A stretch of DNA of 64,000 nt from Candidatus Latescibacterota bacterium (lineage in GTDB: Bacteria; Latescibacterota; UBA2968; GCA-2709665), in contig CBDCOX010000002.1 of assembly GCA_965219995.1 (NCBI GenBank), forward strand, positions 3,328,001-3,392,000, in the 5' to 3' direction. Of this stretch, positions 59,178 to 64,000 are shown piece by piece; the first letter of the stretch is position 1, and every line of letters starts with the position of its first letter. The notes beneath the pieces were generated by a model. It was given only the letters and a program-made list of their open reading frames with translations. It was not told where the DNA came from and ran no database searches. The translations under genes were made by a program, and so were the position numbers.

Positions 59178-59388
59178 ATAAAGGCGGTGAGACGGAAGAC
59201 GGTAGACGGTAGAAAAAAGCGGTAAGACGTGAGACGGTAGACGGTAGAAAAAAGCGGTAAGACGTGAGACGGTAGACGGTAGATGACATCTTTGCCCGAT
59301 AGGTTGCTCCTTTTTGCCTGCGGCAAGAAATGAAACCGAACAGGCAATGATATTTTCTCACGTCTTGCGTCTCACGTCTCACCGGTTT
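59178..59388 (+). repeat. Heptamer-arm element with a triplicated 35-bp left arm (core type 2)
   Basis: AAAAAAGCGGTAAGACGTGAGACGGTAGACGGTAG at 59213 and 59248, variant at 59178; core TTTTGCCTGCGGCAA similar to 62533-62597. Confidence 0.85.
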
Positions 59389-59392
59389 GTAA

Positions 59393-59408
59393 TGTTCCAC
59401 GTGAAACA
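59393..59408. promoter_or_regulatory. parS centromere site
   Basis: TGTTCCACGTGAAACA, 15/16 match to TGTTTCACGTGAAACA; origin-proximal. Confidence 0.9.
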
Positions 59409-59465
59409 TCATACCCGATATGTAAAACCGGCGCGTTGTCGCCGGCGGACGCGTGCGGAGGAACG

Positions 59466-60110
59466 GTGACGGATCAGGAGTTTCTGACGGCCGCCGAAGC
59501 GCTGTCCGTCACCCTTTCTGACGAACAGGCCTCGCGGTTTTTTCAATTTGAAGCGCTGCTCCGGTCGTGGGCCGAACGGGTAAGACTGGTGTCCCGGGGA
59601 GACCGGGACAGGATCAGGGCGCGTCACTTTATCGAGAGTCTGCGGGTGGTTCCCTTTCTTCCGGAAGGGCCGATTTCGCTCCTGGACCTGGGATCGGGCG
59701 GGGGTTTCCCGGGCGTTCCGGTCAAGATCGCCCGTCCGGAAGTGGAGGTCGTACTCCTGGAGTCGGCAAGAATGAAGGCGCTCTTTCTGAAACACCTGGT
59801 CGGTGAACTCGAAATGGACGGGCTGTCCGTTTTGCACGAGCGGGCGGAGGTTGCCTGCGAACGCGAGGAAAATCGGGGGAGATTCGATATTGTAACTGCA
59901 CGTGCTGTGGGCGCCCTGCCGGTCCTGTGGCGCCTATCGTCAGGCTTCCTCACGAAGGGCGGCGAGCTGTTCGCGCTAAAGGGGCCTGGCGCGCGCCGGG
60001 AGGCGGAGGAATTCGGGCTCGACGGTCCCGTCGTGACCATAGAAGCCGGGGCGCCGGGGGTCCGGCGAAGGAACACGGTTCTTGTCAGGGCTTCCGCCCG
60101 GCGCGAATGA
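59466..60110 (+). CDS. rsmG: 16S rRNA m7G527 methyltransferase
   Basis: RHFIESL, LDLGSGGGFPG, VTARAV; GGAGG RBS before GTG. Confidence 0.95.
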   Translation: MTDQEFLTAAEALSVTLSDEQASRFFQFEALLRSWAERVRLVSRGDRDRIRARHFIESLRVVPFLPEGPISLLDLGSGGGFPGVPVKIARPEVEVVLLESARMKALFLKHLVGELEMDGLSVLHERAEVACEREENRGRFDIVTARAVGALPVLWRLSSGFLTKGGELFALKGPGARREAEEFGLDGPVVTIEAGAPGVRRRNTVLVRASARRE

Positions 60111-60509
60111 TCACTCGGCCTGGACGAGTTCGATCAGGACGCCCGATGCGCTCCGGGGATGGATGAAAGCCACCCGCCGGCCGAGCGCGCCCGTCCGGAT
60201 TCCGCCGGCGATTGCGACGCCCCGGTCCTTGCAGGCCGAGACGGCGGCATCGATATTTTTAACACGGACGGCAATATGGTGCAGACCCTGTCCCTTCCTG
60301 GAAAGGAACCGTGTCAGGGAACTCCCTTCGTGCGTTGGTTCCAGGAGTTCGAGCCGGATCAGGCCGGTTCCGCCCAGAAATACCGCCCGGACACCTTCGG
60401 CTTCCACGGTCTCTTCGTCCGTTGTTTCAAAACCGAGCATCGCATAGACGGCCAGTGCCCGGTCAATCCCCTCCACCGCGATGCCCACATGATCCACGTG
60501 TCCGTCCAC
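60111..60509 (-). CDS. mce: Methylmalonyl-CoA epimerase
   Basis: DHVGIAV, LELLEP, GLHHIA, AFIHP..GVLIELVQ; adjacent to the mutase. Confidence 0.92.
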   Translation of the reverse strand: MDGHVDHVGIAVEGIDRALAVYAMLGFETTDEETVEAEGVRAVFLGGTGLIRLELLEPTHEGSSLTRFLSRKGQGLHHIAVRVKNIDAAVSACKDRGVAIAGGIRTGALGRRVAFIHPRSASGVLIELVQAE

Positions 60510-60511
60510 GG

Positions 60512-62368
60512 TTATCCTCCCGGTCTGTAGGATCCAAAAGCGGAACGCAGCCTGTCCGATATCTCGCCAACCGTCCCGCCGGCGAACCCTGCCGCCACGA
60601 CCGCTTCCGTTATCGACCCCGTGCCCCGCGCCCGTCGTTCGACGTTGTCCAGCGCAGCCTGCAGGGCATCGGAATCCCGCAGGGCCCGTGTCCGCGCCAG
60701 GCCCAGTTTCTGACTTTGTTCCGAGTCCTGTGTGGGTTGGAAGGTCGAAACCGGCACGTCAGGATCTCCCTGAAAACGGTTCACCCCCACCACCACGGTC
60801 TCCCCGGACTCGATCTTCTTTTGCGCATGGTATGCCGAGTCCGCAATACAGCCCGCCGTAAAGCCGTTTGCGGCCGCCTGACCCGCCCCGCCCTCGCGGT
60901 CGACCGCCTCCAGTACGGCCATAGCTTCCTCCTCCAGTTCATCGGTCATTTTTTCGACCGCGTACGACCCTCCCATGGGATCGATGGTATCCGGGATGCC
61001 GCTTTCGTAGGCGAGGATCTGCTGCGTTCGTACCGCCAGTTGCGCGCCCGCATCCGTTGGCAGACCCAGCGCTTCATCGTACGCGTTGACGTGCAATGAC
61101 TGGGCGCCGCCCAGAACGGCGGCCAGCGCCTGCAGCGTGGTCCGTGCGCAGTTGTTCATCGGCTGCTGGGCCGTGAGGGTCGAGCCGGCGGTCTGCGCAT
61201 GGAATCTCAGGCGCCTGCAGCGCGGATCCTCCACACCGAGGCGTTCCTGGACGAGGCGGCTCCAGAGTCGTCTTGCCGCGCGGAATTTTGCGATTTCCTC
61301 CAGAAAATGGTTGTGGACGCCGTAAAAGAAGGAGAATTTCGGGAGGAACCGCTCCGGTTCGAGCCCTGCAGCGATGGCGGCATCGGCATACGACAGGGCG
61401 TGGGCGAGCGTAAAGCCAAGCTCCTGCGCGGCGGTTGCGCCGGCCTCCCTCATGTGGTAACCGCTGACGCTGATTGGATTCCATTTTGGCGCCTCTCTGA
61501 GACAATAGTCCATCAGATCGACCACCAGGCGCATCGAGTCGGCAATCGGGAAGACATATGTTCCACGTGAAACATATTCCTTGAGAATATCATTCTGGAC
61601 CGTGCCGGTAAGCGCCCGCGAAGGCAGACCTCGTTTCTTTCCGAGGCCCGCGTAGAACGCGAACAGGATGCACGCCGTCGCGTTGATCGTCATCGATGTA
61701 CTGATGCGGTCGAGCGGGATACCATCGAACAGGGCATCCAGGTCCCAGAGGCCGTCCACCGCCACGCCCACCCTGCCCACCTCGCCGTCGGCGTTTGGAT
61801 GGTCCGAGTCGTAGCCCATCTGGGTGGGCAGGTCGAACGCCACGCTCAAGCCGGTCTGACCCCGGGCAAGCAGATCGCGAAACCGGGTGTTGGTCTCCGC
61901 GGGGGTGGAAAATCCCGCGTACTGGCGGAAGGTCCAGAGGCGTCCGCGATACATGGAGGGATAGGCGCCGCGGGTGAAGGGGGGTTCGCCCGGGCGTCCG
62001 ATCCGGTCCTGAGCGTCGCCGTCGCTTCCGTCTCCGCTGCCCCCTGCCCCCGCGGAATGTGGTTCGCTATTGACCCCGCCGTCGCACGTTTTCACGCTCT
62101 CGGAGGGGCCGGCAAGAAGTCCTGCCATCCGGTCGAACAGGCGCCTGGCTTCTGCCGAAGTGGCGCGCTGCCTGTAGGCCTGCAACAGGAGCGTACCGGA
62201 GTCCAGGTCAAGGGCGGCCGCCAGATCCAGGCATCGTTTGTCCGAAGGAATTCGCTTTCCGCTCTCGATCTGTCCGATATAGGTGCCCCAGACGCCGATC
62301 GATTCACCCAGACCCTGCTGGCTGAACCTGCCCTGGCGCGCTTTCCTGATCATCTTGCCGAAATCCAT
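60512..62368 (-). CDS. XRE-HTH / methylmalonyl-CoA mutase (substrate-binding subunit) fusion
   Basis: N-terminal FGKMIRKAR..SQQGLGESIG..YIGQIESGKRIP; then PFTRG, RQYAGF, GLSVAFDLPTQMGYDSD, QNDILKEY, ISVSGYH; GGAGG RBS before ATG 62368; no B12-binding domain. Confidence 0.92.
   Translation of the reverse strand: MDFGKMIRKARQGRFSQQGLGESIGVWGTYIGQIESGKRIPSDKRCLDLAAALDLDSGTLLLQAYRQRATSAEARRLFDRMAGLLAGPSESVKTCDGGVNSEPHSAGAGGSGDGSDGDAQDRIGRPGEPPFTRGAYPSMYRGRLWTFRQYAGFSTPAETNTRFRDLLARGQTGLSVAFDLPTQMGYDSDHPNADGEVGRVGVAVDGLWDLDALFDGIPLDRISTSMTINATACILFAFYAGLGKKRGLPSRALTGTVQNDILKEYVSRGTYVFPIADSMRLVVDLMDYCLREAPKWNPISVSGYHMREAGATAAQELGFTLAHALSYADAAIAAGLEPERFLPKFSFFYGVHNHFLEEIAKFRAARRLWSRLVQERLGVEDPRCRRLRFHAQTAGSTLTAQQPMNNCARTTLQALAAVLGGAQSLHVNAYDEALGLPTDAGAQLAVRTQQILAYESGIPDTIDPMGGSYAVEKMTDELEEEAMAVLEAVDREGGAGQAAANGFTAGCIADSAYHAQKKIESGETVVVGVNRFQGDPDVPVSTFQPTQDSEQSQKLGLARTRALRDSDALQAALDNVERRARGTGSITEAVVAAGFAGGTVGEISDRLRSAFGSYRPGG
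61559..61574. promoter_or_regulatory. parS site inside the mutase gene
   Basis: TGTTCCACGTGAAACA, identical to 59393-59408. Confidence 0.85.
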
Positions 62369-62500
62369 CGCCGAAGCCTCCATTGCGGAATCGCGGGACC
62401 GGATCAACCGAGCGCGACGCCGGAACCGCGTCAACACACGCTTGTGTGTGTAGTGTTAAGACATAAAATACTGTTTTTAAATACGCTTATAAAAACCTGC

Positions 62501-62825
62501 AATCGGTGAGACGTGAGACGGTAGAAGGTAGATGACGTCCTTGCGTGATTGACTCTACTTTTATGCCTGCGGCAAAAAGTGAAACCGGACGGGGCAATAA
62601 AGGCGGTGAGACGTGAGTCGGGAGACGGTAGATGAGTTGGTCCGCCTGCGGTTAATCCATCGCGTGCTGGCAGGTCTCCTGTCGGCGGAAAACCCACTCG
62701 ACAATTGCATCCTTGCAAAAGACATGCCTTCGCGAATTGATGAATTGACAACGCCAGGCCATATCGAAATCCAGTGGACGCGGAATCATCCTCTCCCCTC
62801 TCCCGTCTAACGTCTCCCCGCTCTT
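62501..62825 (+). repeat. Two adjacent heptamer-arm elements (core type 2 truncated, core type 3)
   Basis: Arms CGGTGAGACGTGAGAC at 62504 and TAAAGGCGGTGAGAC at 62598; right arm ending CGTCTCCCCGCTCTT. Confidence 0.7.
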
Positions 62826-62982
62826 CAGGCACTCACATCATCTCCCATCTCCCCGCTTCTTGAGGGGCCGGTGGGAGAGGTCTGCGCCCTTCATGGTGTT
62901 CCAGCCTTATGGCGCACCCACAGCTGTCCTCGTTATACAGACACCAATTGGTTTACAAAGGTATTTCCCGACCGGAGGGTTA

Positions 62983-63346
62983 CCAGAGCAGAGCGCGCTG
63001 ATCCGTCCAGCGACGCGGATCGATGTTCCTCCGAGGGTGCCAGGGCAGAGGATGATGTGCATCCTGCAAGCGTGTTCGCGCTATGCATATGGCAGGCCCC
63101 ACGCCCAGTGGCGACTATTCCAAAGGCGGTAAGACGTTAGAGGAAAGACGGTAGAAGTAACCCTTGCCAAGTATGTTTTCCCTTCTTGCCTTCGGCACTT
63201 ATAGAATTCGCACAAGGCAGGTAATCTCTACCCTCTCCCGTCTTCCGTCTCCCCGCTTTTAAGGAACCCGCCGGAGGCAGGGAATTTGGGGAAAAGGGGA
63301 TTTTGAATTTGATTCTTGGTTTCGATTCTAACTGACGGCTGAATTC
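62983..63346 (+). repeat. Scaffold repeat family D, copy 3, with heptamer-arm insert 63121-63261 (core type 4)
   Basis: Flanks match 538-929 and 1643-1907. Confidence 0.85.
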
Positions 63347-63466
63347 TGGTTTGTTGGGGCAACCCTTGTGGTTGCCCGCCTTTCGCGTGTTTCCGGGTTT
63401 CCTTTGTGTCTTTGTGTCTCCGTGTGAGCTGATTTTCGCTTCAAGCCGACGGCTGAACGCTGCCCT

Positions 63467-64000
63467 TCAGCCGGAAACGACCGGATTTTCGAGCCGGCCG
63501 ATGCCGTCGACTTCGCATACGACGCTGTCCCCTGCCTTGAGCCAGAGCTGCGGCTCGCGGGCCATTCCGACGCCCGGCGGCGTGCCCGTGAAGATCAGGT
63601 CTCCGGGCTGGAGGGTGACAACCCGGGAAAGGTAGGCGATCAGCTGGTCGACATTGAAAATCAGTTGCGCGGTATTCGAGTCCTGTACGGTCTCGCCGTT
63701 CAGGATACAGCGAATATCCAGGTTGTGGGGATCGCCAACCTCGTCGGGGGTGACAAGATCCGGGCCCAGCGGCGCGAAGGTCTCGAAGGTTTTGCCCAGC
63801 AGCCACTGACCGCCGGGTTTTTCCAGCTGAAAGTCCCGCGCGCTCACGTCGTGGCCCACCGTATAGCCCGCGACGTGGCCCATCGCGTCGGATTCCGGGA
63901 TGTCTTTTCCCGCCGTTCCGATGACAACGACCAGTTCGACCTCATAGTCGATGGAACTGGTGATCGACGGCAGGCGGATCGCGTCGCCGGGTCCGATGAT
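63467..64000 (-). CDS. Fumarylacetoacetate hydrolase family protein, 5' end beyond window
   Basis: IDYEVELVVVIG, DVSARD, GKTFETFAPLGP, GDLIFTGTPPGVG. Confidence 0.93.
   Translation of the reverse strand: MIGPGDAIRLPSITSSIDYEVELVVVIGTAGKDIPESDAMGHVAGYTVGHDVSARDFQLEKPGGQWLLGKTFETFAPLGPDLVTPDEVGDPHNLDIRCILNGETVQDSNTAQLIFNVDQLIAYLSRVVTLQPGDLIFTGTPPGVGMAREPQLWLKAGDSVVCEVDGIGRLENPVVSG

Follow-up and report, generated by a model that had tools for sequence, protein, structure and literature searches.

An XRE-type helix-turn-helix domain joined to the methylmalonyl-CoA mutase large subunit in one genus of Latescibacterota: origin from a regulator gene of the same locus and a candidate role in autoregulation

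We analysed a stretch of 64,000 nucleotides (nt) of a Candidatus Latescibacterota bacterium (assembly GCA_965219995.1, contig CBDCOX010000002.1, positions 3,328,001 to 3,392,000; genome G000 of our set), hereafter called the window, in which one gene encodes an XRE/Cro-type helix-turn-helix (HTH) domain, which we call the head, joined to the large subunit of a methylmalonyl-CoA mutase. The parts of this fusion gene and the gene directly downstream are the following, the domain borders being taken from the Pfam and NCBIfam profiles and from an AlphaFold2 (AF2) model:

60512..62368, minus strand: coding sequence of the HTH-mutase fusion, one open frame of 618 amino acids (aa), stop codon included
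62377..62381, minus strand: Shine-Dalgarno sequence GGAGG, 8 nt 5' of the fusion ATG
62165..62368, minus strand: XRE/Cro-type HTH domain with five helices, residues 1-68 (Pfam HTH_3 and AF2 model)
62114..62155, minus strand: sixth helix, residues 72-85, the last segment in common with a free-standing XRE protein of related bacteria
62024..62113, minus strand: Gly/Ser/Asp-rich linker, residues 86-115, disordered and variable in length and sequence
60515..62023, minus strand: methylmalonyl-CoA mutase large-subunit (substrate-binding barrel) domain, residues 116-618 (Pfam, NCBIfam, AF2)
60111..60509, minus strand: mce, methylmalonyl-CoA epimerase, with a GTG start 2 nt past the mutase stop

The frame runs from an ATG at 62368-62366 to a TAA at 60514-60512 on the minus strand, and GGAG(G) is found 8-9 nt ahead of the homologous ATG in all 15 orthologous loci. 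A sequence-only reading of the window had described a single continuous frame with a good ribosome-binding site (RBS) encoding an XRE/Cro HTH, a helix, a Gly/Ser/Asp linker and a mutase barrel with an intact RQYAGF motif, followed by mce and containing no B12-binding domain. This description is borne out in each part, Pfam and the AF2 model agreeing on the order of the modules and a Pfam scan of the open reading frame (ORF) finding no B12-binding domain. Pfam HTH_3 matches residues 7-56 with 29.9 bits (cut-off 23), HTH_19 and HTH_31 scoring under their cut-offs on the head, and Pfam MM_CoA_mutase (PF01642) matches residues 123-612 with 644 bits (cut-off 22.1), covering profile positions 23-512 of 512. 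The AF2 model of the 618-aa fusion, built on a 46-row alignment with a mean predicted local distance difference test value (pLDDT) of 84.4 and a predicted template modelling score of 0.78, consists of a confident five-helix head (helices 3-11, 17-23, 28-35, 43-53 and 57-68; pLDDT of the block 89-95), the sixth helix, a disordered segment (85-115) and a well-folded barrel (116-618). The linker shows pLDDT values below 50 in the model and insertions and deletions between species in the alignment. A complex prediction with two copies of residues 1-95 scored 0.35 at a mark of 0.42 and was counted neither for nor against. An enzyme and a DNA-binding-type module are joined here in a single polypeptide, both being under purifying selection.

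The enzyme half probably is a working large subunit of a split methylmalonyl-CoA mutase, because it passes NCBIfam TIGR00641 (mutase N-terminal domain) with 648 bits (cut-off 303.8), the 5.44-Mb genome (98.6% complete) gives no other MM_CoA_mutase match, the partner genes are present, the epimerase gene is coupled to it and its ratio of non-synonymous to synonymous substitution rates (dN/dS) across the genus is 0.124; its activity is predicted from these features. The motifs RQYAGF, SRGTY and SGYHMREAG are all present. We take the Tyr in RQYAGF, the Arg in xRxTY and the Tyr-His in SGYH to be the residues setting methylmalonyl-CoA specificity. In the printed alignment the fusion has Tyr (RQYAGF) and Arg (SRGTY) where HcmA, the 2-hydroxyisobutyryl-CoA mutase large subunit, has Ile (RQIAGF) and Gln (AQKEY), the residue-by-residue comparison being one with HcmA. 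The mce product passes the equivalog TIGR03081 with 123.9 bits (cut-off 114.95). The B12-binding subunit and meaB, which the sequence-only reading had wished to see located, lie at about 2.53 Mb of G000:C2, approximately 860 kb from the fusion gene: the small subunit of 131 aa carries a DGHDRG motif and passes TIGR00640 (159.6 bits, cut-off 57.45), and the MeaB gene directly following it passes TIGR00750 (291.4 bits, cut-off 240.75). Two acyl-CoA carboxyltransferase genes (L037, L038) are candidates for the propionyl-CoA carboxylase, and both score far under the NCBIfam cut-offs.

Two observations on B12-related genes stand beside this. A second B12-binding protein of 256 aa, scored with PF02310, is encoded elsewhere in the genome (L001, G000:C2:4592513-4595845), flanked by a gene of 348 aa and a large gene running off the locus, and the sequences suggest a cluster of the corrinoid methyltransferase type. 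In at least two species (L079, G010:C1:3645000-3652000; L080, G014:C1:146000-153000) two genes are inserted between fusion and mce, i.e. a TonB-dependent receptor of 993-1018 aa (Plug, TonB_dep_Rec_b-barrel, CarboxypepD_reg) and a 532-aa gene without Pfam family, and a leftover copy of the last ~37 mutase codons remains just before mce. That the receptor, lying beside a B12 enzyme, imports corrinoids is speculation.

The fusion is real, vertically inherited and restricted to one genus of uncultured, sponge-associated marine bacteria. We searched 168 genomes of the phylum, beginning with 61 related ones: all 15 members of the genus, among them G000, carry the full-length fusion (query residues 1-618, 79-92% identity), and the other 153 genomes gave no such match. 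Several of the 15 assemblies are single contigs with the same open frame. Protein searches gave a concordant picture: the top 11 of the 120 matches listed are protein clusters of 601-692 aa from several sources having both Pfam domains, and the matches after these (at most 67% identity over approximately 80% of the query) have the mutase domain only, among the matches listed. Searching for the head (region 1-100) among proteins of 339-1082 aa returned, out of 350 candidates, only the same 11 clusters, and of the 228 relatives of residues 1-120 drawn from 1.84 billion representatives, the best 150 include 34 proteins of at least 341 aa, none of which carries a mutase domain. The named loci of matching architecture are Candidatus Latescibacterota metagenome-assembled genomes (MAGs), one fusion cluster being labelled Gemmatimonadota by its source. 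Independent fusions of the mutase to unrelated HTH types may exist elsewhere.

An artefact, be it a lost stop, a frameshift, a chimeric assembly or a mutase translated from an internal start, is extremely improbable. Apart from 15 independent assemblies with the same open frame and the 11 protein clusters mentioned above, the fusion region is covered in three independent DNA metagenomes (X5, X6, X7), labelled sponge and marine metagenome, by contigs near-identical to the window. The support across 62000-62170 which the sequence-only reading had asked for comes from the contigs bridging the linker: record 26 of run X7 (1572 nt, 18 differences) spans 60962-62533 and so includes the head, the linker and two-thirds of the barrel; the entire linker is also contained in record 14 of run X5, with more than 31 nt on either side. 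The contig pieces of run X6 tile the region, none of them bridging by the rule of more than 31 nt flank. RNA run X20 holds short contigs only, the relevant one of 173 nt (61865-62037) entering the linker by 14 nt without bridging it, and assembled transcript contigs cannot reveal start sites. Concerning an internal start, no conserved in-frame start with an RBS is found in the linker, and purifying selection at the amino-acid level is seen upstream of the linker. No support for an artefact was found; the nearest case is a deletion at the 5' end of the gene in a single species (G009), to which we return below. Misassembly, absence in relatives and internal translation, all of which the sequence-only reading had named as ways in which its proposal could fail, can be set aside on these grounds.

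As an observation on the mutase relatives, the 790-aa protein P0013 from ENA has its C-terminal half near-exactly repeated, the block from QRAGLQVDDFAPQLAFFF occurring twice, which is either a tandem duplication within the gene or an assembly artefact.

The origin of the head is seen from the genes surrounding the fusion, of which two served as synteny anchors located by tblastn:

59436..60110, plus strand: rsmG (Pfam GidB), convergent with mce and the fusion gene; synteny anchor
63467..64000, minus strand: gene of the FAA-hydrolase family (Pfam FAA_hydrolase), running off the window; second synteny anchor

A GTPase gene with a product ending in ...FCIGK, which we take to be MnmE-like, is a further anchor common to the window and its relatives. 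In relatives of other genera and families without a mutase match, a short frame of ~175-185 aa from stop to stop is 57-65% identical to fusion residues 1-89/99, and free-standing XRE proteins of 165-167 aa show 56-67% identity to the fusion over residues 1-88 (e.g. L028:1297-1797, P0122, P0128 and P0143, annotated as 'helix-turn-helix transcriptional regulator' only). These proteins have an HTH_3-type match only, their C-terminal ~75 residues being without Pfam family. At L028 and L032 the XRE gene of 166/167 aa lies between convergent rsmG and the FAA-hydrolase gene, with a divergent gene encoding a coiled-coil protein, and the order FAA-hydrolase gene, coiled-coil gene, regulator, rsmG, mnmE-like gene is found at 17 of the 18 named Latescibacterota loci, none of the 18 having a mutase within 8 kb. 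Many relatives with the free-standing regulator have no mutase match at the locus or, with this query, elsewhere. In the window the fusion and epimerase genes occupy the position held elsewhere by the free-standing XRE gene, and neither the C-terminal domain of the free-standing regulator nor the coiled-coil protein is found in the fusion's own genome (genome search E<=10; tblastn E<=1).

We show the head descending from this conserved XRE protein of the rsmG/FAA-hydrolase locus. Because the protein is present there in many relatives without a mutase match, the fusion looks like a by-product of gene neighbourhood and deletion. Intermediate arrangements are seen as well. At the locus of the sister genus (G018, G021) there is an unfused mutase together with mce, and no HTH head, coiled-coil gene or palindrome of the kind described below; this mutase begins MELEKKAW..., approximately 49 residues ahead of the PFTRG motif. 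An NCBI MAG encodes the free-standing regulator P0143 (MDA0744899.1) and the unfused mutase P0022 (MDA0744898.1) under consecutive accessions on a 40,946-nt contig, and one 4743-nt Logan contig apparently holds both P0014, the nearest of the unfused mutases (67%), and P0128, which scores best among the free-standing heads (65%), the adjacency of regulator and unfused mutase resting on consecutive accessions and equal contig sizes. A contig scan of genomes for this pre-fusion arrangement gave only relatives of 51-55%. Because ancestor, pre-fusion arrangement, fusion and head-loss lineage are all sequenced, the birth of a bifunctional protein can be reconstructed step by step. In the simplest history, the mutase-epimerase pair would first have arrived at a position directly downstream of the regulator gene. 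A deletion in the genus ancestor would then have taken the C-terminal domain of the regulator, the spacer and the first ~35-50 mutase codons with the frame staying open, and in the sister genus the regulator would have been lost instead. The exact breakpoints of this deletion are inferred ones.

Both halves of the fusion are under selection. We calculated dN/dS by the Nei-Gojobori method for 91 pairs of 14 fusion orthologues, G009 being left out for its disturbed 5' end, and found residues 1-66 at 0.128, the helix after them at 0.238, the linker at 0.841 and the mutase at 0.124. For comparison, 231 pairs from 22 free-standing genes, all of one genus, yield 0.122 for the head, 0.111 for the helix and 0.122 for the C-terminal domain, so that the fused head is as constrained as the free-standing one. 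The HTH core SQ..LG...GVWGTYIGQIE.G.R.PS, with the recognition helix GVWGTYIGQIE as a part of it, does not vary among the 14 fusions aligned and is the same in most free-standing proteins, and the f1, g10 and g11 free-standing proteins share the recognition helix of the fusions exactly. Over the head, fusions and same-family free-standing proteins have an identity of 0.59-0.67, slightly less than the 0.68-0.77 seen among free-standing proteins from different families, which indicates some change of the head after fusion, outside the reading helix.

Upstream of the fusion gene lie two further features:

62432..62453, no strand assigned: palindrome CAACACAC-GCTT-GTGTGTGTAG with an ACACAC...GTGTGT core, ~65-85 nt 5' of the fusion ATG; candidate operator or hairpin
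62455..62500, minus strand: AT-rich block always preceding the palindrome, a possible promoter region, kept in 14 loci of the genus

AT-rich block and palindrome are present together in 14 of the 15 loci of the genus, the fifteenth (L020) having only 410 nt of upstream sequence, and the palindrome is absent from the two sister-genus loci, which also lack the HTH. Head and palindrome are thus retained together and lost together. The free-standing genes are preceded by a very strongly conserved intergenic region of 260 nt. On its opposite strand it contains a near-consensus promoter TTGACA-N17-TATATT with an ACAC...G(T/C)GT palindrome in the spacer, which a strict pattern detects in three sets of loci (9 of 9, 17 of 18 and 6 of 19; 32/46 altogether). 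A second palindrome of this region is nearly identical to the one of the fusion genus, and in family f3 a further palindrome lies within the spacer of the gene's own promoter TTGCAC-N17-TATATT. Palindromes in both promoter spacers of a divergent pair beside an XRE gene are the arrangement classically seen with autoregulated repressors. Divergent promoter, hairpin and coiled-coil gene of the free-standing loci are all lost in the fusion genus, which has nonetheless kept the palindrome of the ancestral regulatory region. We propose the palindrome as operator because of the spacer palindromes at the divergent promoters and because head and palindrome stayed together in the fusion genus and disappeared together from the sister genus.

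Three sets of observations on the intergenic regions are added here in their own right. The stretch between free-standing regulator and coiled-coil gene (L028:1893-2067, plus strand; L032:1231-1405, minus strand; equivalents in L029-L036, L041-L058 and L059-L078) is highly conserved class-wide and shows, after TTGACA-N17-TATATT, a co-varying hairpin with an invariant C-rich loop (CUCCCCAC; in family f3 CCUCCCCACACC), a second hairpin/palindrome, a third co-varying hairpin and an A-rich tail, and as such looks like a structured leader or small RNA; no Rfam match (E<=0.1) was obtained for the locus in the window or for four related ones. Genus g6 (L032-L035, L041-L056) has the recognition helix YIYQIE, compared to YIGQIE in L028-L031, L036, L052, L057 and L058, and a promoter-spacer element ACACAAAC...AGTGT, compared to ACACACAC...AGCGT elsewhere, the right arm of the second palindrome shifting in step; this may be protein-site co-evolution and, as a single evolutionary event, is a lead only. 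Short intergenic repeats of the type TCTACCGTCTCACGTCTCACCG occur at 62500-62667 and 62752-62835, with similar sequence at ~59180-59400, and over these stretches of the window the depth of contigs from four metagenome runs rises abruptly, by a factor of 5 to 30. Related repeats fill the insertions between palindrome and fusion in other species, and the repeats probably are a genus-wide family resembling repetitive extragenic palindromes or miniature inverted-repeat transposable elements.

These data are consistent with a model according to which the fusion acts as an inherited, ligand-independent regulator, its head still binding DNA with its own upstream palindrome as the likeliest target and autoregulating the mutase-epimerase operon; we regard the chances of this model being correct or incorrect as evenly balanced. 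The C-terminal ~500 residues would serve as the sole mutase large subunit together with the separate small subunit and MeaB, and the fusion gene would be co-transcribed with the epimerase gene. The N-terminal 88 residues represent the DNA-reading head plus one helix of the free-standing XRE regulator, whose ~75-residue C-terminal domain was lost. Tethered by the flexible linker of ~30 residues, the head would retain its ancestral specificity for DNA, and with that C-terminal domain missing, the heads could pair only via the mutase core. Solved relatives of the mutase are dimers of large subunits. An oligomeric core would hold two heads together, substituting for the lost domain, and the pair of heads would bind the inherited ACACAC-N4-6-GTGTGT palindrome, resulting in autoregulation of the operon. 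The regulatory activity would be inherited and need not respond to substrate or cofactor of the enzyme. DNA binding, dimerisation via the mutase and the role of the palindrome as operator are what we infer here.

Several results weigh against this model or favour a passenger head, i.e. a real fusion in which the HTH no longer usefully binds DNA and is kept since it carries promoter, RBS and start codon of the only mutase gene and since an unfolded N-terminus would harm the enzyme, its ancestral targets being gone. The divergent-promoter pattern is found at none of the 15 fusion loci, and the conserved hairpin and the coiled-coil gene have gone from the genus. One of the 15 species, G009, has a deletion of 7 nt in codons 12-14 which destroys helix 1 and shifts the canonical ATG to another frame; starting at an in-frame ATG further upstream, which has no RBS, would yield a protein with helix 1 replaced, so that the head may be dispensable in this species. 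The sister genus dropped the HTH from the locus altogether. The helix following the HTH shows weaker constraint in fusions (0.238) than in free-standing genes (0.111). No operator is found at a fixed distance from the start, the palindrome lying ~80 nt from the ATG in six loci and 590-1100 nt away in eight with repeat-rich insertions between, and a consensus scan of 62300-63500 gave neither sigma-70 promoters nor terminators. The core ACACAC-N2-10-GTGTGT occurs at only two places in the 5.44-Mb genome, the rough chance estimate from base composition being ~2, so that there is no sign of a regulon; the second place (G000:C2:4538220-4538239, ACACACACACAAGTGTGTGT) lies between the 3' ends of two convergent small genes without obvious link to the mutase pathway. 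Furthermore, the bases flanking the palindrome co-vary symmetrically (e.g. TTAC/GTAA, CCAC/GTGG, TATAC/GTATA), a pattern which a selected hairpin in RNA or DNA explains no worse than a protein site does; of the 30 pairs predicted by RNAalifold in the intergenic region, 13 show compensatory changes.

We nevertheless judge the passenger head to be somewhat unlikely. Its dN/dS of 0.128 matches that of the free-standing heads (0.122) and of the enzyme (0.124), while the adjacent linker reaches 0.84. Conservation is highest in the recognition helix, which lies at the surface, and 14 of the 15 species keep the palindrome although synonymous divergence amounts to ~0.76.

The alternative reaching beyond autoregulation is a trigger enzyme, as the sequence-only reading had proposed, in which DNA binding by the head would be switched by acyl-CoA, by loading with adenosylcobalamin (AdoCbl) or by association with the small subunit or MeaB, so that flux through the methylmalonyl-CoA pathway feeds back directly on transcription. 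Both modules are under selection in one polypeptide, the lost C-terminal domain, likely serving oligomerisation or sensing, is replaced by an enzyme with cofactor-dependent partner assembly, the partner genes are unlinked, making a regulatory link useful, and enzyme-repressor precedents are given by PutA, BirA and NadR. On the other hand, the disordered linker of ~30 residues, neutrally evolving and variable in length, is a poor conduit and disfavours tight allosteric coupling, leaving room for control via oligomerisation or assembly. The fusion, moreover, arose by a neighbourhood accident from a regulator present in many genomes lacking the mutase, and a genome scan shows no palindrome near the small-subunit/meaB operon or the carboxylase genes. 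Taken together we consider a trigger enzyme unlikely. Its most concrete form, in which the mutase replaces the sensor/dimerisation domain of an XRE repressor and the assembly of the core (AdoCbl, small subunit, MeaB, acyl-CoA) decides whether the heads clamp the candidate ACACAC...GTGTGT operator, appears to us improbable to the same degree.

Comparison with known systems shows that barrel and head are each ordinary family members, the unusual thing being their combination. The free-standing Latescibacterota XRE protein resembles the fusion in recognition helix, locus, upstream ACAC...GTGT palindromes and dN/dS of the head; it differs by its own helical C-terminal domain of ~75 residues where the fusion has linker and mutase, and by the divergent promoter, structured leader and coiled-coil gene, all lost in the fusion genus. 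On the enzyme side, split methylmalonyl-CoA mutases have the same families of large subunit, small subunit and MeaB as found here, and the unfused relatives (sister genus, P0014, P0022) have first ~35-50 residues which in the fusion are replaced by HTH, helix and linker. The best solved sequence match is HcmA (4R3U; E 1.8e-149, residues 119-615), followed by human and bacterial methylmalonyl-CoA mutases; HcmA is alike in its split architecture, but has Ile and Gln at the specificity positions and no DNA-binding domain. IcmF, comprising isobutyryl-CoA mutase, a MeaB-like GTPase and a B12 domain, shows that the same family tolerates fusion to a partner, but not to a DNA-binding domain. The fusion gives only a partial match to NF045497 (IcmF; 253.7 bits, far under the cut-off of 1500), and IcmF-like frames of ~1100 aa are carried by G016, G017, G020 and G054.

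The closest solved relatives of residues 1-95 are C.BclI (2B5A, E 0.002), C.AhdI (1Y7Y, E 0.0047) and the P22 C2 repressor (E ~0.3), all with very weak similarity; they have small XRE-type heads like the one of the fusion, but stand alone with 70-80 residues and no enzyme. C.BclI and C.AhdI are controller proteins of restriction-modification systems, i.e. dimeric autoregulators binding palindromic operators. PutA, BirA and NadR combine, like the fusion, a DNA-binding domain and a metabolic enzyme in one chain; they use other DNA-binding folds and other enzymes, and their switching by ligands is experimental, whereas the fusion is known from sequence and has a long, disordered tether. ScfR, PccR and RamB have an XRE N-terminal HTH tied to propionyl-/methylmalonyl-CoA metabolism, in which they resemble the fusion, but are separate regulators with their own C-terminal sensor. 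The sequence-only reading had drawn a link to acyl-CoA regulators of the ScfR/PccR kind, which does not hold, the head descending from the 165-167-aa XRE protein of the rsmG/FAA-hydrolase locus. By Pfam the fusion has HTH_3-type and MM_CoA_mutase matches only and its free-standing ancestor an HTH_3-type match only, which on domain content, ScfR sequences themselves not being aligned, sets both apart from a ScfR/PccR-type regulator as commonly defined. The suggestion that the architecture is undescribed agrees with the literature as far as titles and abstracts tell, full-text searches having returned no publication with an HTH-mutase fusion in its title or the start of its abstract; to our knowledge no such fusion has been described for B12-dependent acyl-CoA mutases.

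As a summary, we describe an enzyme joined to a DNA-binding-type module in all 15 genomes of a Latescibacterota genus. Fusions of enzymes and transcription factors are rare, and each shows directly how metabolism talks to gene expression. The fusion is a natural candidate for an enzyme which also controls genes, and its features make a trigger-enzyme function plausible and regulation more generally a well-motivated hypothesis with a concrete candidate site. If the HTH is a passenger, it would illustrate cleanly how strong the conservation of a 'useless' domain can be, a point to bear in mind when domain architectures are read. Should the head still bind DNA, the fusion would show that the oligomerisation/sensor domain of a repressor can be replaced by a large enzyme. 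A response to B12 or acyl-CoA, if true, would make the fusion a new class of trigger enzyme and a possible natural biosensor for B12 or propionate, and should the assembly of the mutase core decide on clamping of the operator, transcription of mutase and epimerase would be tied directly to the supply of cofactor and substrate in a sponge symbiont.

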